Virus record (IMG/VR): IMGVR_UViG_2537561928_000018
Direction: 5' to 3' (one strand)
Length of the DNA: 9,093 bases
Source of the DNA: a virus
Taxonomy: Duplodnaviria > Heunggongvirae > Uroviricota > Caudoviricetes
Made by a program: the position numbers and the translations under genes. This document shows, piece after piece, positions 1-9,093 of the stretch; position 1 is the stretch's first letter; each line of letters starts with the position of its first letter. The notes under the pieces are model-generated. The model did not search any database and was not told the origin of the DNA. It saw nothing but the letters and a program-made list of their open reading frames with translations.

Positions 1-540
1 AAAAATACTTAACAGAACTACCAAGAAGAGAGGGAACGATAAGACCGGAGGTAGTGACCTTGTTAGACAGGCTGTTTCAAAGCTCTTAAGAATCTGTTAA
101 GTAAGGTCATGTGAACAATCTTACCATTTTGTCAATGCTTTTGTCTTTGACCTAAATCAATAAAATGTATCGTTTGATGTGCTTTTAAACAAAGTAGCTA
201 AAAAATCTTTTTAGAGGGGCGCTTCGCTTGGGGTCACTATGTTCTTTCTCTCCCGTTAAGAGGGGAGTTACAGGGCATTTCAAAGCCCTGATAAGGTAAG
301 CCCGATGATAACAGAAACAGAGGGCAAAACCACTTATCAACACTGTGAACGAATAACGTAAAGGGCTGGTTAAGAAAGTCGGTTTAGGGATTGGTAGATG
401 ATTCGGATGAAGCATCCTCATAACAATACCAATTAGAAGGGAGCTTCCCTCTCTGGGGTTATCGCTCTTCTCCCGCTTAGTGGATAGCTAAGAAGGCTTG
501 AAGTCATCTGTGAAGGTGCTGAACAGCTACTATATTGGGT

Positions 541-583
541 GATTGCAACTCGTTGAAAAATAAGCATTTTTAGAAATCACTGT
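541..583 (+). repeat. 43-bp imperfect direct repeat, copy 1 (partner at 638-680)
   Basis: Seen in sequence: gattgcaactcgttgaaaaataagcatttttagaaatcactgt versus aattacaacttattgaaaaataagaacttttagaaattactgt; about 36 of 43 positions identical by eye, same orientation, 97-bp period. Confidence 0.6.
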
Positions 584-637
584 TAAGGTTACAGAGTCAA
601 CTGTGAAGAGACTTGTCAGTTCTCTATATATATGGCT

Positions 638-680
638 AATTACAACTTATTGAAAAATAAGAACTTTTAGAAATTACTGT
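638..680 (+). repeat. 43-bp imperfect direct repeat, copy 2
   Basis: See copy 1; shared core ttgaaaaataag...ttttagaaat.actgt. Confidence 0.6.
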
Positions 681-761
681 CAGAGAGGTGAATACTTGAT
701 AGACACAGCTTTCTGGTTCTGTCAAGCTATTTTTTAATAGATAGCACAAAATGCTAAAGAT

Positions 762-790
762 ACCCCTGTACGAGATGGTATAGGGGTTTT
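762..790. terminator. Hairpin with T-run, possible intrinsic terminator
   Basis: acccctgtac / gtataggggt forms a roughly 10-bp stem (one G-T pair) with 6-nt loop gagatg, followed by tttt on the + strand; sits about 10 bp 3' of the stop of the minus-strand ORF 800-1012, so it could act on either strand. Not folded computationally. Confidence 0.35.
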
Positions 791-799
791 GAAGGGGGT

Positions 800-1012
800 T
801 TAACGGGGGTCCGTGTGGTCATTATCCTTAAGGTCAAGCGTCCATGTACGACCGAACAGTTTAAAGACAACAAGCACTCTGACGAGGACGTAGCGGAGTA
901 ACAGACCTGCAATCAGCCCGATACCTCCACCAGCCCATACATCAGGTGACCCCAGTTCAGGAGGGAGATTTACCATTAAATTTCCTGTGTGCAATGCAAT
1001 ACCATGTGACAT
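800..1012 (-). CDS. Hypothetical small protein with one hydrophobic segment (70 aa; alternative start at internal Met, codon 977-979, gives 58 aa)
   Basis: ORF track; hydrophobic stretch AGGGIGLIAGLLLRYVLVRVLVV; no clear SD before ATG at 1012, weak AGGA before the internal ATG; region looks GC-richer than its surroundings. Could be spurious. Confidence 0.3.
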   Translation of the reverse strand: MSHGIALHTGNLMVNLPPELGSPDVWAGGGIGLIAGLLLRYVLVRVLVVFKLFGRTWTLDLKDNDHTDPR

Positions 1013-1140
1013 ACATAGTTGATTCGGTTAGTTGGGCTTGTACCAACCCCTATCGAATAAACCTCATAGCCACGCCTTTATATTTTACTCTCCCCATAGA
1101 ACCATTATACCACAGATGTTAATAAAATGTTAAAAAATAC

Positions 1141-1179
1141 TTGACATTAGTCTTTGAAAATGCTAGTATTGTATATATA
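1141..1179 (+). promoter_or_regulatory. Sigma70-type promoter P1: TTGACA, 17-bp spacer, extended -10 TGcTAGTAT, then TGTATATATA box
   Basis: Seen in sequence: ttgaca at 1141-1146, tgc-tagtat at 1161-1169, tgtatatata at 1170-1179; located about 50 bp upstream of the 1221 start codon. Confidence 0.55.
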
Positions 1180-1220
1180 AGTTAACAGAATAATAACATC
1201 TTATGAGGGTCGGAACATGA

Positions 1221-1778
1221 ATGAGAGACGCAGAATTTAGAGCGATGCTTCAGGCATCGAGACAACGTAACAAGCACAACTCCTACGCTTACACAAACAA
1301 CCCAACCAGCTACGAACTACCCAAGCTCACCAAGAAAGAACGCAAAGGCATTGACGAAGTAATTCGTAGCATTACGCCACGAGACAGATTTATGCCAACC
1401 AGAAAGAGCACCCAGAACACTATTAAAAATTATCTGGCTAACTTTGATTCTTACGAGCAACTACCAAGTAAGCTTGATGATATTTTCATTGGATTCTGTA
1501 GAAGTGAAGGCCACCCGAAATACAACAAAAAACTATTTTATCTTCTAAAGAATCTTGACGAAATTAACGCAGCCAGCGTGACAAATTATCTTCAAAGACA
1601 AGCAACCAGACTTAGCCATGAATTACCAAGCGATAAATATTGCGCTTTGCTTGCTGTAATGTGTGCAAAGCTAATTGGTATTGTTGAACATCATATTGCC
1701 GTTGGGAATATTGAGCCAATGGAAAACGAGCAACCAGATTTCGAGTTTGACCCGTATTTAGTTACAGAGGAATTTTAA
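1221..1778 (+). CDS. Hypothetical protein, 185 aa, acidic C-terminal tail (first gene of coupled operon)
   Basis: ORF track; ATG start; GAGGG about 11 nt upstream; stop TAA directly abuts the next start codon (TAAATG). No family recognised. Confidence 0.7.
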   Translation: MRDAEFRAMLQASRQRNKHNSYAYTNNPTSYELPKLTKKERKGIDEVIRSITPRDRFMPTRKSTQNTIKNYLANFDSYEQLPSKLDDIFIGFCRSEGHPKYNKKLFYLLKNLDEINAASVTNYLQRQATRLSHELPSDKYCALLAVMCAKLIGIVEHHIAVGNIEPMENEQPDFEFDPYLVTEEF

Positions 1779-2057
1779 ATGAATAAACACACATTAACCC
1801 GTATTTCAGAGGAAGCTTTTAACGAGCTTACCAGAATTAAACGAGCTACTAACTTGCCTCATCAAACTGTAATGCAGCTTGCAATTGCTAAAGAGGTCAC
1901 TGAGTCGGATTTACTTAAATATCCAGTCTCTAAAGGTCGTAAGCACATCCGAATTACTCAGGACGCTTTAGATACTTTGAAGGCACTTAACGGCTTTAAG
2001 ATTGATATTGCCCGTCTATTGAGTCTTAAGATTCACAAGTTAGCGATGGAGGTTTAA
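1779..2057 (+). CDS. Putative DNA-binding protein with two ribbon-helix-helix-like repeats, 92 aa
   Basis: ORF track; SD GAGGAA 6 nt upstream; pattern HTLTRI-SEEAFNELTRIKRAT-NLP-HQTVMQLAIAK and a second HIRIT-QDALDTLKALNG-IDIARLLSLKIHK resemble strand-helix-helix units. Fold assignment is inference only. Confidence 0.6.
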   Translation: MNKHTLTRISEEAFNELTRIKRATNLPHQTVMQLAIAKEVTESDLLKYPVSKGRKHIRITQDALDTLKALNGFKIDIARLLSLKIHKLAMEV

Positions 2058-2272
2058 TGCTATGCGTTACCTTTGAATACCACACGGATAAAATGATTCG
2101 CCACATCTCCGACCTCCTGATTAAGGGAAACGGATTCGGTGACATCCATAACTCAAAAGATATTTTCATTAAAGCCATTGGCCCAAATGAAGTACTGAAA
2201 ACAGCAGTTAAACCGGAATGGTTTGAGCGTCACAAGATTGAATTAGGTTATTGGGGTGAGGAGGTTTTATGA
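2057..2272 (+). CDS. Hypothetical protein, 71 aa
   Basis: ORF track; start overlaps upstream stop (TAATG); GGAGG 4 nt upstream; stop overlaps next start (ATGA). Confidence 0.6.
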   Translation: MLCVTFEYHTDKMIRHISDLLIKGNGFGDIHNSKDIFIKAIGPNEVLKTAVKPEWFERHKIELGYWGEEVL

Positions 2273-2556
2273 AACCTTGGCATGAAGATGTTAGACGATA
2301 TTTTACAGAACACCTTATCTATGATGAATCCAGTGATTCCCTGTGCTGGTCTGATGGAGAGTCAGTCACGATAAATACCGACGACTACGGCAACAAAACA
2401 TTTAATATAGGCCGATATACTTTCTACGTGAAATATGTTGTCTGGTTCCTTTATCATGGCTATCAATCCAACAAGCAAATTATCCATCGAAATGGTAACA
2501 GAGCCGATACCAGACCAAAAAATCTTATGCAAGTCCGAGACTTTAAGAGAAATTAG
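2269..2556 (+). CDS. Minimal HNH-family endonuclease, 95 aa
   Basis: ORF track; SD GGTGAGGAGG 4 nt upstream; C-terminal motif IIHRNGNRADTRPKNLMQV matches the H-x-x-G-N...N-L signature of phage-type HNH endonucleases, preceded by YVKYVVWFLYHG; recalled family pattern, not searched. Confidence 0.7.
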   Translation: MKPWHEDVRRYFTEHLIYDESSDSLCWSDGESVTINTDDYGNKTFNIGRYTFYVKYVVWFLYHGYQSNKQIIHRNGNRADTRPKNLMQVRDFKRN

Positions 2557-2711
2557 AAAAATAGCTTCTCAGGCGCTCTCAATCGCATTCTAACGCAAAA
2601 AACTATCTTATTTTAGGGTGGGTAATACCACTGTACAGGCTACCCCTGAAAAAGACTGTTTAGCTCGTTACAGAGCGATTGAGGAGGTCTGGTAAAAAGG
2701 AGATTTTAAAA

Positions 2712-3035
2712 ATGAACAATTACCCATTACAGATTTTCGTTGATAACGACACCGCTATGATGATTCAGGCTTTCACTGATGTAGGTGTTAGCATTGACTT
2801 TGACAGGCTGTTAAGGCTAATGGCTGATAACTCAGAAGTAATTGAAGACTTTATTCAGTCGGTGGAGTTTAACGAGCCTCGAATGATGCTACCAATTATA
2901 GACAGCAACATGAAAAGATTGGTTATCGAGCAAACGAACAAATACAGTATTAGCCCTGAAAGATATCTCAAGGCAGCTATAGCAATTTTGTACGCTGACA
3001 ATATTTTGGTGACGGATTCGAAGGTGGTGCATTAA
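2712..3035 (+). CDS. Hypothetical acidic protein, 107 aa from the ATG (ORF track begins at TTG 2679)
   Basis: ATG at 2712 has SD AAGGAG 9 nt upstream, preferred over the TTG at 2679 which overlaps a GAGGAGG; D/E-rich; no family recognised. Confidence 0.65.
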   Translation: MNNYPLQIFVDNDTAMMIQAFTDVGVSIDFDRLLRLMADNSEVIEDFIQSVEFNEPRMMLPIIDSNMKRLVIEQTNKYSISPERYLKAAIAILYADNILVTDSKVVH

Positions 3036-3100
3036 TGGAATTGGTGATTATCTGTTTTGTATTGATTGGTATGATTGCAGGTGCATCTATTAAAGTATAA
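3035..3100 (+). CDS. 21-aa hydrophobic micropeptide MELVIICFVLIGMIAGASIKV (not in ORF track)
   Basis: Seen in sequence: ATG overlaps upstream TAA (TAATG); strong SD AAGGTGG 5 nt upstream inside the end of the preceding gene; one predicted transmembrane-length hydrophobic stretch; stop TAA at 3098-3100. Confidence 0.4.
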   Translation: MELVIICFVLIGMIAGASIKV

Positions 3101-3125
3101 ATGTTACCAATCTGTTAAAAAGCTG

Positions 3126-3164
3126 TTGACAAATAACCTTGAGCATGACATAATTGTATATATA
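3126..3164 (+). promoter_or_regulatory. Sigma70-type promoter P2: TTGACA, 17-bp spacer, extended -10 TGaCATAAT, then TGTATATATA box
   Basis: Seen in sequence: ttgaca 3126-3131, tga-cataat 3146-3154, tgtatatata 3155-3164; same architecture as P1. Confidence 0.55.
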
Positions 3165-3243
3165 GGGAGAGCAATTCTCCTTGAATTAAAATATTAATCG
3201 TCTCTACATCGATGATAACTATATTCTGAGTTGGAAAGGTGCA

Positions 3244-3420
3244 ATGCTTTTCGTCATGGCCTTTCAGGTTAGTCTGAGAGGCTATCTCAAAAAGTGCTTA
3301 ATCATTCATTCATTGAACCCTTTACAGCTTTGCCCTAATCATGAGTTAGGGCGTTTCTTTAAGAGTTTTCAAACAGAACTTTTAAAGAAAGTTTTTCCTG
3401 AAACTTCGTTAACGTTATAA
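3244..3420 (+). CDS. Candidate small ORF, 58 aa, basic (alternatively an untranslated leader or small RNA)
   Basis: ATG at 3244 with stop TAA at 3418-3420; lies between P2 and a hairpin at 3432-3473; SD weak (AAAGGTG only 2 nt from the ATG); just below the ORF-track length cutoff. Coding status uncertain. Confidence 0.25.
   Translation: MLFVMAFQVSLRGYLKKCLIIHSLNPLQLCPNHELGRFFKSFQTELLKKVFPETSLTL
3332..3360 (+). terminator. Terminator-like hairpin gccctaa / ttagggc with tail gtttcttt
   Basis: 7-bp perfect stem, 7-nt loop, T-rich tail; located inside the candidate 58-aa ORF or leader, so it may be an attenuator rather than a gene-end terminator. Confidence 0.35.
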
Positions 3421-3431
3421 AGCAAACCTCC

Positions 3432-3480
3432 AAAGCCCTTCACAGATGAGGATGAACCTATGTTTAGGGCTTTTCTTTAT
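3432..3480 (+). terminator. Terminator-like hairpin aaagccct / agggcttt with tail tctttat
   Basis: 8-bp stem but a large 26-nt loop, followed by a T-rich run; begins 12 nt after the stop of the candidate small ORF. Confidence 0.3.
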
Positions 3481-3573
3481 AGAGCATCTTTAATAAATCG
3501 TTAAGTCATCTTCTAAGTGTATTGGCGTTGAAGGTGCTCTATTAAGAAATAATCACACTTAGAGGAAATTATA

Positions 3574-4284
3574 ATGACAAATGATATTTACATTAATGGC
3601 AGAAAGGTTGATAGCTTCGGTGACTGGTCGCCACAGACTGAACATCCAGCTATCACTATTCAGCGTAAAGAACACGATGAAAGAATTAAGCTTGAGCAAT
3701 CGTTAAAGATGTCACCAAAGGTAATTTCCTTTGTGTCTCCTGAGCCTCAAGAAATGCCAGATATCTGCAAAAGTGAAGCACTATTTAATCTTGAGCGTGA
3801 ATATTACCCACAGTTAAAAGCACAGCGTATTAAACTTGATGACGCTTACAGCAAAGTTACCCTGATGCAATCAGCTATTGAGCCGTCAGAATTTGAGATT
3901 CAGGATGAATTGTCACAGAAACCATTTGTCTATTACCAATACGAAGATAATGATGGTTTTGGTACTTTTCCTGAGAATATCCCAGACGTGATTAATAATC
4001 TTCCTGACGGATATCGAATTGTGAAGATGGTTAAAGCTTCAAGGGGTGCTGGTCAATTTATTTATATGACTAATAAGAGCGATGAAGAACTCTGTGAACT
4101 TGCTAGACAGAACATCTTGGCATCACGTAACAAGCAACTTGAAAATGTTAAGTTGTATCTCTCAAGAGAGCTTCAGGCTATGAAAGAACTTGTTAGTGAA
4201 TATGAATCACAGAAGAAGATTGCTATGCAAGCCGATATTGAGCAGTTAATGAAGATTTCTCAGAAATATGCAAAGGCTATTTGA
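3574..4284 (+). CDS. Hypothetical protein, 236 aa
   Basis: ORF track; SD AGAGGAAA 5 nt upstream of ATG; predicted helical, charged C-terminal third; no family recognised. Confidence 0.75.
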   Translation: MTNDIYINGRKVDSFGDWSPQTEHPAITIQRKEHDERIKLEQSLKMSPKVISFVSPEPQEMPDICKSEALFNLEREYYPQLKAQRIKLDDAYSKVTLMQSAIEPSEFEIQDELSQKPFVYYQYEDNDGFGTFPENIPDVINNLPDGYRIVKMVKASRGAGQFIYMTNKSDEELCELARQNILASRNKQLENVKLYLSRELQAMKELVSEYESQKKIAMQADIEQLMKISQKYAKAI

Positions 4285-4292
4285 GGTGATTA

Positions 4293-4601
4293 ATGAATGA
4301 TTTAACAGAACGCGATAAAAGAATTAAAGGGGTGATGGAACCTTTTGAAGATAGGTTCAATGAAATTAAAACGACTCTTGGTGATATTCAGGAGGTCACT
4401 GAATATCTTATTGGTCGTATGGACGAAAAGCCTCTTGCCGAACTAAAGTGTGATGGTCGGGATGATTTAACGCGACTTCTTATCGAACTCAAGGATAAGA
4501 TAAATAAGCTTGATACTGTGTATTATCAAACTGGTCTTTCACTACGTTATGAAATTCAAAAGAATGAACGCGGTGTCGAGTGTATACACTACTTAGATTA
4601 A
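4293..4601 (+). CDS. Hypothetical protein, 102 aa, N-terminus MNDLTER
   Basis: ORF track; SD GAGG 6 nt upstream; N-terminus paralogous to the next gene. Confidence 0.7.
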   Translation: MNDLTERDKRIKGVMEPFEDRFNEIKTTLGDIQEVTEYLIGRMDEKPLAELKCDGRDDLTRLLIELKDKINKLDTVYYQTGLSLRYEIQKNERGVECIHYLD

Positions 4602-4626
4602 AATCGAATTAAAAAGGAGGTGGTGA

Positions 4627-4830
4627 ATGATTGATTTAACAGAACGCTATGAACTCATCAAGGCAATTAGTGAACGACTGAAAGAACAACCCAACAAACC
4701 AAAACGAATCAAATCATCCACCTCTAAGCAAAATAACAGAATCAGAAGAATCGCTAAATGGTGTCTTGATAAATTACCAAGTGATTGTCAGATTGTTGGT
4801 GAAGATGGCAATTATTATCTGGTTGGGTAA
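4627..4830 (+). CDS. Hypothetical basic protein, 67 aa, N-terminus MIDLTER
   Basis: ORF track; strong SD AAGGAGG 6 nt upstream; K/R-rich middle region. Confidence 0.65.
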   Translation: MIDLTERYELIKAISERLKEQPNKPKRIKSSTSKQNNRIRRIAKWCLDKLPSDCQIVGEDGNYYLVG

Positions 4831-4850
4831 AAAGATTGGTTGGGTAAAAA
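4821..4850 (+). repeat. Tandem repeat of ggttgggtaaaaa (2 copies, 17-bp period) overlapping the stop codon of the 67-aa gene
   Basis: Seen in sequence: 4821-4833 and 4838-4850 are identical 13-mers. Confidence 0.55.
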
Positions 4851-4855
4851 TCTAC

Positions 4856-4897
4856 GGGAGAGATTATCGAGTGACATCGGTAGTTTCTCCCTTTTTT
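4856..4897 (+). terminator. Hairpin gggaga / tctccc followed by tttttt, putative intrinsic terminator
   Basis: 6-8 bp stem, roughly 20-nt loop with internal complementarity, then a T6 run; lies between the 67-aa gene and the tape-measure-like gene. Confidence 0.45.
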
Positions 4898-4904
4898 GTA
4901 TGTG

Positions 4905-4970
4905 TGCTACGTGAAATCTGTAAAGCTAATACCCACACTGAAAAATAGAATTTACGTACAACACGCTTAA
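4905..4970 (+). promoter_or_regulatory. Conserved 66-bp intergenic element, copy A (upstream of the tape-measure-like gene)
   Basis: Shares the ordered blocks tgctacgtgaaatct ... atacccac ... aaaaat ... tttacgta ... cacgcttaa with copy B at 7049-7114; first 15 nt identical. Confidence 0.5.
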
Positions 4971-4988
4971 AGAGGTGAAATATGAACA

Positions 4989-7037
4989 ATGAGCAAATTT
5001 ACAGTTGATAGTTTTATCGTTGAATTAGGCTTCAGTGAAAACGTTGTTAAAGGCTTGCAAAGAGTTGAAAAGGCAGCTTTGCAGTCAGCACAAAGAATTG
5101 AAAAGAACCTAAATAAAGGTTTCAGGATTAATACAAAACAGCTTGATAGTAATTTGACAAGTTCTTTAGGGCAACTTGAAAGGAAGTTTAATAAGGCTTT
5201 TGACAAGATTGAACAGAGAGCAAGAAGCACAAAAGCTTTCCGTTTCACAAGTCAGGTTAATGACGCTATTAATCCTCCAAAACAACCAAGACAGCCACGA
5301 ATTAGCGGAAACAGAGCAATCACAGCAGCTTACTCAGCGAATATGAGCAAGTTAAAGGGCTTTGACCCTGTTTTGCAGAAATACATCAAATCTCAGTTTT
5401 ACGGGCTATCTGCTAAAGCTGGTCAGATGGATAATTCAAAATTCAATGAGAAGCTGGCTCAGTTAAATGCTTCAGTCAGAGAAGCAATTGCTAAAGCTAA
5501 AGGTCATACATCCACCAGCATTAACGGTGACAGAGCAGCTAATAGTCTTGATAGTTTGAGTTCAGCAGCAGTTAAAACAGCAGGTGCATTTATCAGCTTT
5601 CAGGCTGTACTATCCGCTTATCAGAAGATTATGGAAGTTGGCCTTCAACGTGCATCATCGGAAAGAAGTATTGATTTCGTATTCGGTGACCAAAGTACAC
5701 AGGTCAAAAAGTTCATTCAAGATTTAACTCAAATTACTGGTATGGACACAACCGAAACACAAGCACAGTTTGCTTCATTTGGTGCATCTGCAAAAAATAC
5801 GATGGGTCTTGAAGGCTCAGAGGAATTATTTAAAAACTTAACTGGATATGCCCGTTTAATGGGTCGTTCAGATGAGCAGATTCAAAGAGCATTAACCGCA
5901 GTATCGCAGATGGCTTCTAAGGGTCAGGTGATGGCTGAAGAGCTTAAGGGGCAACTATCTGAAGCTTTACCGGGTGCTACTCAGGCATTTGCAAAGGCTT
6001 TAGGTCTGACTGAAAAACAGCTTTTCGATAAGATGAAAAATGGTGATGTTAAAGCCTCTGATGCACTCCCTAAGTTTGCTAAAGAACTTGGTTCACAGAT
6101 TAATTCCAGAGGTGGCTGGAAAGCTATTCAGGACTCTACGCAGACGATGTTAGGGAACTTAAAGAATACTTGGAACAACTCACTAACGGATATCTTCAGA
6201 GGTTCTGAAAATGGTCTTCAAGATTTCACAAGAAGCTTAACAACGCTTTTAAATAGTCTTGGTGGGAGTGGTAAAACATTAGGTGAAAGTCTTGGTAATC
6301 TCATGACTTCTATGTCACACGGTGTCGATAACCTGACTGATATTAGTTACAGGGTAAGGGCGTTCTTTGACGAGGTGACATTGGCTTATCGTGGTTTAAC
6401 CGATGAACAAAAGAAAGTTGTTGATGCTTTAGGTTCTGGCTTGATTAATAGTTTAAAAGTCTTGGCTGGTGTTATTGCTGTAAATAAAGTTGTTGGTGTA
6501 ACCAGAAGTATTTACGGGCTTATGACTGCTATCACAAGATTAGGTCAGGTCGCTGATACTACAGCGGATAACGTGAATAGAAAGAACGGGAAACCATCAA
6601 GGTTTAATCTTGGGAATATGCTATTAGCTGGTAGTGCTATCTATGCAGGTTATGAAAGATTAGCCTCTACACCTGAACGAATGGAAGCACAAGCTAAATT
6701 ACCAGAGCTGGCTAAAGAGTCTGGACTTAAGCCAGTATTTACTATGGACGATGTGAAAGGTTGGTTTAATAGTGCAGCTATGAATCTTGCTAACTTCCAG
6801 CATCCAGAATTAATCACCATGAGACAAGATGCGGCATTAACGAATACGGATATCCAAAGCCTGAGAGATGAAATTAGTGCTTTGAGCAAACGTATTCAGG
6901 AGCCTGTGAAAGTTTCACTTGGTGGTGAAGTTGCCATTAAACCAGATGAAACCAGCTTTATGACCTTTAGCAGTAATATCTACGACCAATACGCAGAAGC
7001 TACGCTATTAAGTTCATCATTCCCAGAAGATGATTGA
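4989..7037 (+). CDS. Tape-measure-like protein, 682 aa
   Basis: ORF track; residues about 300-368 (ALTAVSQMASKGQVMAEELKGQLSEALPGATQAFAKALGLTEKQLFDKMKNGDVKASDALPKFAKELG) match my recollection of the conserved core of phage tail tape-measure proteins (SKG.V.AEEL..QL.E.LPGA...A.A.G pattern); A/Q/K/L/S-rich helical composition. The only SD (AGAGGTG) is about 11 nt upstream of the ATG. Confidence 0.6.
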   Translation: MSKFTVDSFIVELGFSENVVKGLQRVEKAALQSAQRIEKNLNKGFRINTKQLDSNLTSSLGQLERKFNKAFDKIEQRARSTKAFRFTSQVNDAINPPKQPRQPRISGNRAITAAYSANMSKLKGFDPVLQKYIKSQFYGLSAKAGQMDNSKFNEKLAQLNASVREAIAKAKGHTSTSINGDRAANSLDSLSSAAVKTAGAFISFQAVLSAYQKIMEVGLQRASSERSIDFVFGDQSTQVKKFIQDLTQITGMDTTETQAQFASFGASAKNTMGLEGSEELFKNLTGYARLMGRSDEQIQRALTAVSQMASKGQVMAEELKGQLSEALPGATQAFAKALGLTEKQLFDKMKNGDVKASDALPKFAKELGSQINSRGGWKAIQDSTQTMLGNLKNTWNNSLTDIFRGSENGLQDFTRSLTTLLNSLGGSGKTLGESLGNLMTSMSHGVDNLTDISYRVRAFFDEVTLAYRGLTDEQKKVVDALGSGLINSLKVLAGVIAVNKVVGVTRSIYGLMTAITRLGQVADTTADNVNRKNGKPSRFNLGNMLLAGSAIYAGYERLASTPERMEAQAKLPELAKESGLKPVFTMDDVKGWFNSAAMNLANFQHPELITMRQDAALTNTDIQSLRDEISALSKRIQEPVKVSLGGEVAIKPDETSFMTFSSNIYDQYAEATLLSSSFPEDD

Positions 7038-7048
7038 TAATAGTCGAA

Positions 7049-7114
7049 TGCTACGTGAAATCTTCTGAACAGATATACCCACCAAAAATTATTTTTTACG
7101 TAGCTCACGCTTAA
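7049..7114 (+). promoter_or_regulatory. Conserved 66-bp intergenic element, copy B (upstream of the 258-aa gene)
   Basis: See copy A; begins 12 nt after the stop of the tape-measure-like gene and ends about 80 nt before the ATG at 7195. Confidence 0.5.
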
Positions 7115-7194
7115 CAGAGAAAACACTTATATATCAAAGGCTTGGTTAAAAATGATTAAAATACACTAAGTCTTTGAAATCAAAGGAGAATTTA

Positions 7195-7968
7195 ATGATT
7201 TACTCTAACCAAATCAAATATAGTGGCAAAGATGGCATCTATTTCCACTTAAGAGATAATGTAGATGCCTTCTTAACCTTATCAGCAACTGAAAACATGG
7301 AATTTGACAGCCCTATGCAGGTAACTACACAGAACATGCAATCAGGGCAAACCGTCACAGATAATGTGCAAAGAGCACCCAGAACAATCACTATTAGTGG
7401 TGTCGTTGTAGTTGGCTATGAAGGAAGTTTATTATTAACTCGTCAGGGTCAATTAGTAGAAAACTTCATTGACACTCTCGAAAGCTGGCGTGACCAGAAG
7501 CAAATTATTTCGGTCATCTGTAAAGACGGTATCAAGATTGATGACTCCATTATCACGAGTTTTAAAGCCTCTAAAGATGTTGGAATTTCAAACGGCTTAA
7601 GAATCCAATTAACTTTTCAGGAAATTAACTTTAAAGCTATTGTGGGTCAGACTGATATCTCGGCTGCGACCGGAAGGACTTCTACCACAAGTGATGGTGG
7701 TGCTACCAGTAAAAAGAATACTGGTAATACTACAACAAGTCTAGGTAATGGTATGTTGCTGTGTCAGGAGCTATATAATCGCTCTACGAGTGAACTTTCT
7801 AATGAGCAACTTCAAGCCCGTATCAATTGTGGTAGAAGTGTCAAAGTTGAGAATGGAAAAAGCACCTTCTCAGATGCCGCTAATGAGCAAGCTTCAAAGG
7901 CGCTTAATAATGCTGGTACAGGTAATGTTTTGAAGAGGCTTTCTGTGAATCCTAACAAGCGCTACTGA
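7195..7968 (+). CDS. Hypothetical protein, 258 aa from the ATG (ORF track begins at TTG 7174); possibly tail-associated by position only
   Basis: ATG at 7195 has SD AAGGAG 6 nt upstream, and the TTG at 7174 would overlap it; contains an S/T/G-rich linker ([28 protein letters not shown]) between two regions; no family recognised. Confidence 0.7.
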
Positions 7969-7982
7969 CGATAGAATCTCAA

Positions 7983-8678
7983 CTATATGATAACCTCATC
8001 AACATCTATTAAACCCCTCTCAGTGACTTCAGAAAGCGACTGTATAGCCTCTGTAACGTCCTCTGAGGGGTTTTCTGTTATTGGTAAGGTGATTGCTCTA
8101 CCGTTGTGAAAAGTTACTTTACAGCGACGTTTAGCAGTATTTAAAACGACCTCTTTAACAGCACTTTTGATTATCAGTTGTGCTTCAATCCTTCCCGCCT
8201 TTGTAGTCAAGTCACAATCAGACAAAGAGCCTGTATCGATAGACTTAAGCCGCTGTGTCTCCTTCTCGATATCCGCATCAACCTGTGATAGCTCACCTTT
8301 TAACTGTTTTAGTTTGCTGGTAATAGCGGACAAGTCTTCAATTTCAAGTGATAGCTGTACCAGCTTTTCAATATTGTTTGAGATGTGTTCACGGTGTAGC
8401 TTCAGTGTGTCTATGGTATTCGTCGTATCGCTATCAAATCGGTCAAGACGAGATAGCAGGGTAAGTAATGTACCATCGGTTTGCTTACGTGAAAGTCCTT
8501 TAGCACTACAACGGTTTTCATTACGAAGGGGACAACGATAAATCCCGTTTCTTGTATTGCTAAAGCCTGTGATAATCAGAGCATGACCACATTCAGAACA
8601 ACGGATAACACCTTTAAAGAGATTCACACTCAATGGTTTATCTGAAGCAGGTTTTCGACCGTAACGAGAATGTGATAG
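7983..8678 (-). pseudogene. Large serine recombinase, 3' fragment (zinc-ribbon plus coiled-coil region); 5' catalytic part displaced by the IS3 insertion
   Basis: Minus-strand frame is open from the IS3 boundary with no credible start (track start at 8633 is a TTG); Cys pattern RCSECGH...YRCPLRNENRC followed by a long heptad-like coiled coil is typical of the C-terminal region of large serine integrases; about 230 aa is too short for a complete enzyme. Confidence 0.7.
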
Positions 8679-8743
8679 TGATCTTACCCAGCAATAGTGG
8701 ACACGCGGCTAAGTGAGTAAACTCTCAGTCAGAGGTGACTCAC

Positions 8744-9043
8744 ATGACAAAAACAGTATCAACCAGTAAAAAACCCCGTAAACAGCATTCGCCTGAATTT
8801 CGCAGTGAAGCCCTGAAGCTTGCTGAACGCATCGGTGTTACTGCCGCAGCCCGTGAACTCAGCCTGTATGAATCACAACTCTACAACTGGCGCAGTAAAC
8901 AGCAAAATCAGCAGACGTCTTCTGAACGTGAACTGGAGATGTCTACCGAGATTGCACGTCTCAAACGCCAGCTGGCAGAACGGGATGAAGAGCTGGCTAT
9001 CCTCCAAAAGGCCGCGACATACTTCGCGAAGCGCCTGAAATGA
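8744..9043 (+). CDS. insE: IS3 OrfA (transposase N-terminal / regulatory protein), 99 aa from the ATG
   Basis: Translation MTKTVSTSKKPRKQHSPEFRSEALKLAERIGVTAAARELSLYESQLYNWRSKQQ... is the IS3 OrfA sequence as I recall it; the track start at 8735 is an upstream GTG. Confidence 0.85.
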   Translation: MTKTVSTSKKPRKQHSPEFRSEALKLAERIGVTAAARELSLYESQLYNWRSKQQNQQTSSERELEMSTEIARLKRQLAERDEELAILQKAATYFAKRLK

Positions 9044-9093
9044 AGTATGTCTTTATTGAAAAACATCAGGCTGAGTTCAGCATCAAAGCAATG
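9040..9093 (+). CDS. insF: IS3 OrfB (transposase catalytic part), 5' end only
   Basis: ATG overlaps the insE stop (ATGA); translation MKYVFIEKHQAEFSIKAM matches the IS3 OrfB N-terminus as I recall it; truncated by the window edge. Confidence 0.8.
   Translation, partial: MKYVFIEKHQAEFSIKAM

Follow-up and report, generated by a model that had tools for sequence, protein, structure and literature searches.

The window analysed here, a stretch of 9,093 nucleotides (nt) from the IMG/VR virus record IMGVR_UViG_2537561928_000018, carries a gene for a tape measure protein (TMP) and, next to it, a gene for a tube initiator (TI). The two genes lie in a chromosomal island, beside the remnant of a large serine recombinase (LSR) gene that has been cut by an insertion sequence (IS) of the IS3 family, and the island belongs, with high confidence, to a phage-directed mobile family tied to Felixounavirus. 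In the six-frame listing, the + strand holds open reading frames (ORFs) at 3574-4284 (236 amino acids), 4293-4601 (102 amino acids), 4627-4830 (67 amino acids), 4989-7037 (682 amino acids) and 7174/7195-7968 (264/257 amino acids), followed by a recombinase fragment on the - strand (7983-8633) and the IS3-family orfA from 8735. The GC content of positions 1-8679 is 38.9% (35-42% along the segment) against 50-51% in the chromosomal flanks, in line with an earlier note, made from the sequence alone, that had called the segment AT-rich. The features that carry the argument are as follows:

4989..7037, + strand: TMP, 682 amino acids (Pfam, TIGRFAM and PHROG matches; full-length tblastn match; PDB 9ndy_F)
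7195..7968, + strand: tube initiator, a Dit-like baseplate hub ring protein of 257 amino acids (PF21821; PDB 9ndy_A)
7210..7753, + strand: tract of near-identity to Felix O1-like phage DNA, spanning the tube-like N-terminal domain of TI
7983..8679, - strand: 3′ fragment of the LSR gene, about 231 codons (Zn_ribbon_recom match), cut by IS3
8680..9093, + strand: left end of an IS3-family element, outside the island (inverted repeat TGATCTTACCCAGC; orfA from 8735; HTH_Tnp_1 match)

A tail gene pair of apparent Felix O1-like phage ancestry

Profile and homology searches identify the 682-residue protein as a genuine TMP. It matches Pfam PF20155 (TMP_3; E 9e-18, residues 235-398, 65 bits at a cut-off of 41), TIGR02675 (E 1.7e-14, residues 288-358) and PHROG 4036 (E 8.5e-86), and these matches cover the core at residues about 300-370 and bear out its earlier identification as a tape measure. 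In tblastn, the protein aligns with the TMPs of Felix O1-like phages over 100% of the query at an identity of only 28-30%. The match to PDB 9ndy_F, the TMP (gp17) of the Felixounavirus phage Bas63, reaches E 3.7e-69, with the N-terminus, the core and the C-terminal motif all aligned. In particular, the N-terminal 45 or so residues and the extreme C-terminal motif LLSSS[FY]PE[ED] are conserved with the phage TMP; in the Bas63 virion, the TMP makes contact with the hub and with the PA protein gp21 through its final 25 residues (PMC12609058). At the DNA level, the gene shares 70-72% identity with phage over its first ~120 nt, the 5′ end is 70-80% identical to phages in all island variants, and the final 30 nt of the TMP gene of variant L012 are 100% identical to phage JH2. 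Among islands, the TMP gene has a dN/dS of 0.23-0.42.

The island TMP is 65 residues shorter than the Felixounavirus TMP (682 versus 747 amino acids). Across the family, island TMPs range from 682 to 726 amino acids, and every one seen falls 21-65 amino acids below the 747-residue phage protein. By the rule of thumb of 0.15 nm of tail length per TMP residue, this shortfall predicts tails that would be 3-10 nm shorter.

The downstream protein, which the earlier note had listed as a 258-residue unknown, is a recognisable tail and baseplate protein. It matches Pfam PF21821 (Dit_like) at E 4e-20 and, over residues 5-256, PDB 9ndy_A, the 'tube initiator protein gp018' of the Felixounavirus Bas63 cryo-EM structure, at E 1.7e-127. 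In Bas63, TI forms a hexamer that joins hub to tube and bridges the three-fold symmetry of the one and the six-fold symmetry of the other (PMC12609058). The island TI is 81% identical in amino acid sequence to JH2_087 overall, with divergence over the C-terminal ~70 residues, and its phage homologues above ~40% identity all belong to the Ounavirinae. In phage JH2, the TMP gene (JH2_088) is followed by the TI homologue JH2_087, and the island has the same adjacent pair. Pfam and PHROG searches together with the annotation found no sheath, tube, fibre or capsid gene in the window or in intact island copies; the earlier impression that tube, sheath and fibre genes are missing thus stands, but not that baseplate genes are missing as well, TI being one. 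The further suggestion of a non-tail system that had recruited a TMP-like protein fits poorly with a TMP that is colinear with a virion TMP along its whole length and with a next gene that is the virion's tube initiator.

Part of the TI gene is nearly identical to phage DNA. Among 50,697 phage records, window positions 7210-7753 give the sole megablast match, to more than 200 Felixounavirus genomes at 94-95% identity. Specifically, the 240 nt at 7228-7467 are 98-100% identical to JH2, and identity drops to 78% at about 7767 and to ~45% beyond. We read the 7210-7753 tract as the trace of recent recombination with phage, and such recombination may have kept the tube-like, hub-facing N-domain of TI nearly identical to that of the phage. 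Nothing in the JH2 genome matches the nine other island genes. GC content is 38.6% for the island and 38.8% for JH2, with 50-51% in the flanks. The Ounavirinae, or Felix O1-like phages, are strictly virulent, and the JH2 record has no annotated integrase or repressor. TMP and TI are, on this comparison of sequences, a two-gene tail cassette of Felix O1-like phage ancestry.

Boundaries, recombinase and circular form of the island

The window matches E. coli chromosomes, and 119 complete genomes carry at least 80% of it. In IS-free copies (e.g. NZ_CP058901), the genes lie within an 11,496-bp insertion that splits yecE; the left yecE junction is common to 186 genomes, and most other E. coli have an uninterrupted yecE, that is, an empty site. 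The island ends form an imperfect inverted repeat (TAAATACACTA / TAGTGTATTTA), and the 7-nt core AAAATCA is present at both junctions. In intact copies, the right end encodes a 507-residue LSR with Resolvase, Recombinase and Zn-ribbon domains. The element thus has all the hallmarks of an LSR integrative element: a three-domain recombinase, inverted repeats, a shared core and an empty site.

In the window, homology to intact island copies stops at 8679, where the IS3 inverted repeat starts; the IS3 part has 48% GC and is annotated as IS3-like in matching genomes. The serine recombinase placed beside the module by the earlier note is indeed a recombinase, of the large serine type, but the window holds only the C-terminal ~231 codons of the 507-residue protein up to the IS3 cut. 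Its observation of a lone tape measure was real, but the downstream gene and the recombinase were mis-described. With the LSR gene cut by IS3, the window copy is probably immobile, and its tail cassette is intact. Insertions of IS2, IS21/ISEc12 and IS100 occur in other island copies, and IS21 splits the TMP gene of the Citrobacter island.

A circular form of the island was found in the Logan contig SRR18272906_12275 (L024; 11,341 bp), which is circular by a 25-nt terminal overlap, with the breakpoint inside the TI gene. The contig reads through an attP site TAGTGTATTTAAACGTGTCTAATAAAAATCATCAAGGTCTAAATACACTA (positions ~1985-2035) without chromosomal flank; at the junction, TAGTGTATTTAAACGTGTCTAATAAAAATCA runs into TCAAGGTCTAAATACACTA, so that the right end is joined to the left end over the 7-nt core. 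The contig is the attP form of a yecE-type island and is ~90% identical to the reference. Contigs L025, L037, L039 and L040 were also considered as excised forms and were rejected as integrated copies with short flanks beyond the att core. L025 and L040 stop exactly 30 nt (k-1) beyond the core, and the flanks of L037 and L039 are similarly short; judged by these ends, all four are bubbles in the assembly graph and give no evidence of excision.

Distribution, gene order and selection in the island family

Homologues of the TI gene are present in 474 of 5,426 complete E. coli genomes (~9%), all chromosomal, at 69-100% identity and in up to six places per genome. The sites inspected in E. coli are yecE, ymdF/wrbA and yciI/tonB, and related islands occur in Citrobacter and E. 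albertii. At the yciI/tonB site, the core CAATGACCCTTGA overlaps with the start codon of tonB, and the start and 5′ end of that gene are kept at the right-hand junction; the islands at this position (L013, L037, L039, L041 and L005) carry a different LSR. A scan of genome contigs with the TMP as query gave two loci, a single-protein query reaching close relatives only. An assembly of Salmonella Typhi encodes a TMP of 97% identity, and for single island proteins there are close homologues in both Shigella and Salmonella.

The complete islands at the three E. coli sites and in Citrobacter share one gene order. The E. albertii island, a partial 5.2-kb contig, matches this order from h185 to the start of the TMP gene, where the contig ends. 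From left to right, the order is:

1: variable left cargo (small serine recombinase, HNH-AP2 homing endonuclease or Dam methylase)
2: ORF-less region of 1.5-2 kb
3: h185, or a helix-turn-helix (HTH) protein instead in one variant
4: h92, h71, an optional HNH gene, h107, h236 and h67
5: TMP (682-726 amino acids), then TI (256-262 amino acids)
6: large serine recombinase, opposite strand

No island variant contains a sheath, tube, fibre, capsid or terminase gene, and intact loci in related genomes, where an ordinary prophage would show a conventional full tail gene set, have the same minimal set as the window. Pairwise dN/dS values of 0.07-0.5 for TMP, TI, h236, h185, h67 and h107 indicate purifying selection in all genes tested. 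Recombinases diverge strongly, the Citrobacter LSR being 35% identical to the yecE LSR. Furthermore, sequence similarity between variants differs from gene to gene: L001 and L014 share 88% identity in h236 and 45% in TMP, and L001 and L013 share 27% in h236 and 75% in TMP. By these values, modules are reshuffled between island variants. In the variable left region, a Dam-family methyltransferase (PF05869) is encoded at L037 1481-2143, L038 1715-2383 and L041 2178-2846, and other variants have a small serine recombinase or invertase there.

ORF-less region, phage terminal-repeat copies and putative regulatory elements

The left part of the window and the surroundings of the tail genes contain the following non-coding features:

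1..1220, no strand: right part of the ORF-less region, which extends left of the window; 82-85% nt identity to the Citrobacter and E. albertii islands
536-583 and 633-680: 48-nt direct repeats, 97 bp apart, iteron-like
1104-1133 (- strand) and 1141-1169 (+ strand): divergent strong sigma70-like promoters, upstream of h185
4856..4891, + strand: terminator-like hairpin with a 15-bp stem and a T-run, just before the TMP ribosome-binding site
4905..4970, + strand: 66-nt element, copy 1 (inverted repeat GCTACGTGA...ACGTA); an extra copy, in this variant only
7049..7114, + strand: 66-nt element, copy 2, between TMP and TI in every island variant

The ORF-less region is conserved, spans 1.5-2 kb and contains repeats, and no RepA_N or Pol I domain is found in any island protein. 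With its 48-nt repeats and divergent promoters, it may be an origin or a control region, and it may also give rise to a leftward transcript. Scanning the entire island against Rfam gave nothing at E up to 1.

Some island copies contain segments resembling the ends of Felixounavirus genomes. A 581-bp direct terminal repeat (DTR) has been determined by PhageTerm for the Felixounavirus Pr103Blw (PMC8303462). The SPJ41 record has identical 613-bp ends, and the NBEco005 record begins exactly where SPJ41 ends. The Felixounavirus DTR is ~580-613 bp long; in JH2 it lies at ~84867-85457, inside a 1.7-kb non-coding region between convergent gene blocks. A segment of ~115 nt to the left of the window (L001 13877-13992) matches JH2 84923-84810 at E 1e-18, with a 45-nt core at 93% identity; it straddles the left DTR boundary and is present in L001 and L005. 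Window positions 14-82 (69 nt) are 77% identical to the DTR-internal sequence JH2 85198-85130. In addition, a 52-nt element occurs twice in the yecE island, 2.27 kb apart (L001 13113-13164 and window 384-435), and is 91-97% identical to DTR-internal sequence of NBEco005 (97%, 257-315), NBEco004 and EC106. The Citrobacter island retains part of the DTR-boundary segment. These DTR-like segments are the kind of cis elements that a satellite would copy for packaging, and we treat them as a lead. Mimicry of a packaging site was also considered as a family-wide trait and was not upheld, since variants L012-L014 have no detectable DTR-like segments.

Two further observations concern these sequences. 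The 52-nt element holds a hairpin, GGATGAAGCATCC, and is inverted in variant L012. At the ymdF/wrbA site of strain 97-3250, a 130-nt non-coding segment (L014 5046-5176) is 70% identical to JH2 76739-76891, which is intergenic and lies outside the DTR.

The tail genes are accompanied by putative control elements. The terminator-like hairpin is conserved in all variants (L005, L012-L014) and directly abuts the TMP ribosome-binding site in the others, which suggests read-through or antitermination control of the tail genes. The 66-nt element has a 9-bp inverted repeat (GCTACGTGA...TCACGTAGC); in RNAalifold its pairs are mostly invariant with little covariation, which fits an RNA structure or a DNA-binding site, and copy 2 is a candidate regulatory site. 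The motif TACGTGAAATCT within this element was considered as a Felix O1 late promoter and rejected, as it is not repeated in JH2 and is island-specific. A further sigma70-like promoter lies at 3126-3154. The hairpin, the 66-nt element and the arrangement of the promoters together suggest that the tail genes are insulated from constitutive transcription and conditionally switched on.

Other island proteins

The remaining proteins encoded in the window are:

1221..1778, + strand: h185, island core protein; 59-88% amino acid identity across variants, dN/dS 0.15-0.28
1779..2272, + strand: h92 and h71, small conserved proteins, syntenic in all variants
2269..2556, + strand: HNH endonuclease, 95 amino acids (Pfam HNH_3, 1.8e-8; PHROG 99)
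2712..3035, + strand: h107, conserved small protein, syntenic in all variants, dN/dS 0.16-0.39
3574..4284, + strand: h236, island-specific; predicted long helical hairpin/coiled coil and small alpha/beta domain (AF2, pLDDT 79)
4293..4601, + strand: h102, whose 5′ end duplicates the start of the h67 gene (37-nt direct repeat, 86%)
4627..4830, + strand: h67, small basic protein, directly 5′ of TMP in all variants, dN/dS 0.07-0.28

Homologues of h185 occur in Shigella sonnei (more than 1,000 contigs), S. flexneri, E. fergusonii, E. albertii, Salmonella and E. coli; in one island variant, a 311-residue HTH protein takes its place. The protein has no match in Pfam, PHROG, NCBIfam or PADLOC, and its AF2 model is unusable (pLDDT 43); it is no more than a candidate regulator or replication initiator. 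The h92 protein has a weak DndE-like match (E 0.003). The HNH gene is present in L001, L012, L025, L039 and L040 and absent from L013 and L014. A second nuclease gene lies left of the window (L001 14120-14644) and encodes an HNH_3 and AP2 homing endonuclease of 174 amino acids, labelled 'AP2/ERF family transcription factor' by PGAP. It forms a ~0.7-kb insertion between segments of the yecE variant that are contiguous in the Citrobacter island. With PADLOC 2.0, the island's one match is that of the HNH-AP2 protein to a homing-endonuclease model.

The h236 family has 20 representatives among 1.84 billion cluster representatives and a dN/dS of 0.2-0.47, and its predicted structure has no significant fold match in BFVD or PDB. 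A role as capsid or tail assembly modifier would be speculation. The name 'transposase' given to h236 at NCBI finds no support in any Pfam, NCBIfam or PHROG model and looks like a propagated mis-annotation. The h102 gene is confined to yecE-type variants and is absent from L012-L014. As possible tail assembly chaperones (TACs), h67, h102 and h236 were rejected at the sequence and profile level: they show no similarity to the TAC families phrog_1613, 3840 and 4963, and the hhalign probability against JH2_089/090 is below 1%.

Comparison with known systems

The closest parallel is the phage-inducible chromosomal island-like element (PLE) of Vibrio cholerae. PLE is integrated by an LSR, parasitises the virulent myophage ICP1 and has a large ORF-less origin region and an HNH nickase (PMC9410903). 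It encodes its own TMP, TAC and baseplate hub, which are 20, 20 and 41% identical to those of ICP1; in PLE particles these tail proteins replace those of ICP1 and the tail is ~10 nm shorter, and deletion of the PLE tmp gene lowers transduction by 96-99.9% (PMC12987554). The island resembles PLE in being a small, LSR-integrated chromosomal element that is probably aimed at a strictly lytic myophage. Like PLE, it encodes its own TMP and an adjacent protein of hub or tube-initiator type, both homologous to those of a virulent myophage; in both elements the TMP has diverged widely (20-30% identity), more than the hub protein, and falls short of the phage TMP in length (by 95 amino acids in PLE11 and by 21-65 in the island). 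Both also have a large conserved ORF-less region, an HNH-type nuclease gene and mostly hypothetical proteins. The island differs from PLE in its size (11.5 kb versus ~17-18 kb), in its hosts and phages (Enterobacteriaceae and Felixounavirus versus Vibrio and ICP1), in having no recognisable TAC, RepA_N replication protein, TcaP-like scaffold or LidI-like protein, and in sharing near-identical DNA tracts of its hub gene with the phage. By analogy, the island may work like PLE; it is not filed as a PLE because it has no recognisable TAC and RepA_N protein.

Compared with the Felixounavirus tail module itself (Bas63 gp17/gp18; JH2_088/087), the island has the same two genes in the same order, with a TI that is 81% identical and nearly identical in its N-domain, and with conserved TMP termini and core domain. 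In contrast, the phage pair stands among ~25 structural genes, with two TAC genes before it, neither of which the island has, and the island TMP is ~30% identical and shorter, with TI diverging over its C-terminal ~70 residues. Phage-inducible chromosomal islands (PICIs), capsid-forming PICIs (cf-PICIs) and P4-like elements are likewise E. coli chromosomal islands of ~10-15 kb that depend on or interfere with phage morphogenesis. Putative tmp genes have been reported in some cf-PICIs (PMC12987554, Extended Data Fig. 10). These elements differ from the island in having a tyrosine integrase, temperate helpers, a Pri-Rep or alpha primase, and capsid/terS or sid/psu genes; searches with Pfam, PHROGs and NCBIfam found no tyrosine integrase, AlpA, Pri-Rep/alpha primase, terS/capsid or sid/psu/delta gene in the island. 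Tail-targeting defences (PLE11 Rta and others in PMC12987554) would act at the same step, tail assembly around the TMP; they are inhibitors without homology to tail parts, unlike the candidate effectors of the island, which are tail-part homologues.

Interpretation as a probable satellite of Felix O1-like phages

What the sequence comparisons show is the nature of the parts and their descent from phage, a recent exchange of DNA with the phage, the boundaries of the island, its conservation across the family, purifying selection, and one extrachromosomal circle. On balance, we favour the reading that the island is a hitch-hiking satellite of virulent Felix O1-like (Ounavirinae) phages that makes chimeric tails. 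Of the possibilities raised by the earlier note, a satellite supplying its own tape measure is the one the evidence favours, and it has an experimental precedent in V. cholerae PLE (PMC12987554). On infection by a Felix O1-like phage, the island would excise by means of its LSR and express its own TMP and TI. The conserved contact surfaces, namely the N-terminal 45 residues of TMP, its C-terminal hub-binding motif and the tube-like N-domain of TI, which is partly DNA-identical to phage, would let both proteins enter the phage's assembly line of hub, tube and sheath. The resulting chimeric tails, predicted to be 3-10 nm shorter, would serve island particles, spoil phage tail assembly, or both. 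The broader proposal, a widespread and so far undescribed satellite family of ~11 kb in the Enterobacteriaceae (E. coli, Shigella, Salmonella and Citrobacter) that swaps TMP and TI, shortens tails and, in some lineages, mimics packaging signals, seems to us evenly poised.

The main rival is that the island is a non-transducing defence island, never packaged, whose TMP and TI act solely as dominant-negative decoys that poison Felix O1-like tails and shield the clonal population, and which spreads by some other route; this reading differs from a satellite in the last step only, and we consider it unlikely, though to be taken seriously. It would explain why the contact surfaces are kept in a TMP that is divergent in its core and shorter, as in a poison subunit, why packaging, capsid and replication genes are not recognisable in the island, and why several variants have no DTR-like segments. 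Moreover, interference with tail assembly is an established form of defence, and the manipulation of tails by PLE also blocks ICP1 (PMC12987554). However, PADLOC matches nothing in the island but a homing endonuclease, the island's size, recombinase, ORF-less region and excised circle are typical of satellites, and the copies of phage terminal repeats in some variants would be superfluous for a pure decoy; interference and hitch-hiking are, in addition, compatible with each other. An improbable reading is that the tail genes are roleless cargo, a phage fragment picked up by an LSR island through illegitimate or homing-endonuclease recombination. The island does contain HNH and HNH-AP2 homing-endonuclease genes, which mark boundaries of phage exchange, and TI has a sharp recombination tract, but all variants examined have the TMP and TI pair, in contrast to the variable other modules, TMPs up to 60% different between variants are intact with a dN/dS of ~0.3, and a conserved regulatory element and a terminator surround the two genes.

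That the cassette was left behind by an integrated tailed phage after deletions and IS activity, the decayed prophage of the earlier note, we judge very improbable. Such decay could account for the survival of just two structural genes and for the IS elements seen (IS3 in the LSR of the window, IS2, IS21 and IS100 elsewhere, and the Citrobacter TMP gene split by IS21). However, the sole phage relatives are Ounavirinae, which have no integration module, and the same minimal set of genes recurs in IS-free copies at three sites and in further genera, with clean att ends and purifying selection in all genes tested. The nine other island genes are unmatched in phage, and no residual head, sheath/tube, lysis or replication blocks are present. 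Most improbable of all is that the genes serve a contractile or secretion device other than a phage tail. Tailocins and extracellular contractile injection systems (eCIS) do include homologues of TMP and tube initiator, but sheath, tube, spike, wedge and ATPase genes were not found in the island or its flanks, and the near-identity is to a virion gene of one phage genus.

Several points weigh against the reading as a hitch-hiking satellite. Searches with Pfam, PHROG, NCBIfam, PADLOC and hhalign recognise no replication initiator, terminase, capsid-remodelling gene or TAC in the island. DTR-like segments were seen in the yecE and Citrobacter variants and, at the sensitivity used, were not found in L012-L014. 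The circular contig is one among ~10 island-length contigs examined, from a sample of unknown type, and IMG/VR has the island solely within proviral predictions of 20-55 kb, with no free island contigs. Finally, phage induction, tail incorporation, packaging and transfer are steps that we infer.

Significance

Felix O1-like phages are used in Salmonella typing, biocontrol and therapy. Satellites of virulent phages are known in detail only from PLE and ICP1 of V. cholerae, and chimeric-tail assembly was reported only in 2026; searches of the literature on Felix O1, Felixounavirus and Ounavirinae together with satellites found nothing relevant. The island is most likely a satellite of Felix O1-like phages and, as such, the first candidate where virulent phages infecting E. 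coli, Shigella and Salmonella are concerned. If this reading is true, these model hosts would have their first known satellite system that exploits virulent phages, evolved independently of PLE and ICP1 and convergent with them, and a second, unrelated family would show that the chimeric-tail strategy is general. The hosts are genetically tractable, and the helper genus has a solved virion (Bas63) and isolates at hand (BASEL collection, Felix O1), which would open to direct test why a satellite should need a tape measure of its own. Furthermore, because the TI marker is present in ~9% of complete E. coli genomes and homologues of h185 on more than 1,000 contigs of Shigella sonnei, the island could be an unrecognised determinant of resistance to Felix O1-like phages.

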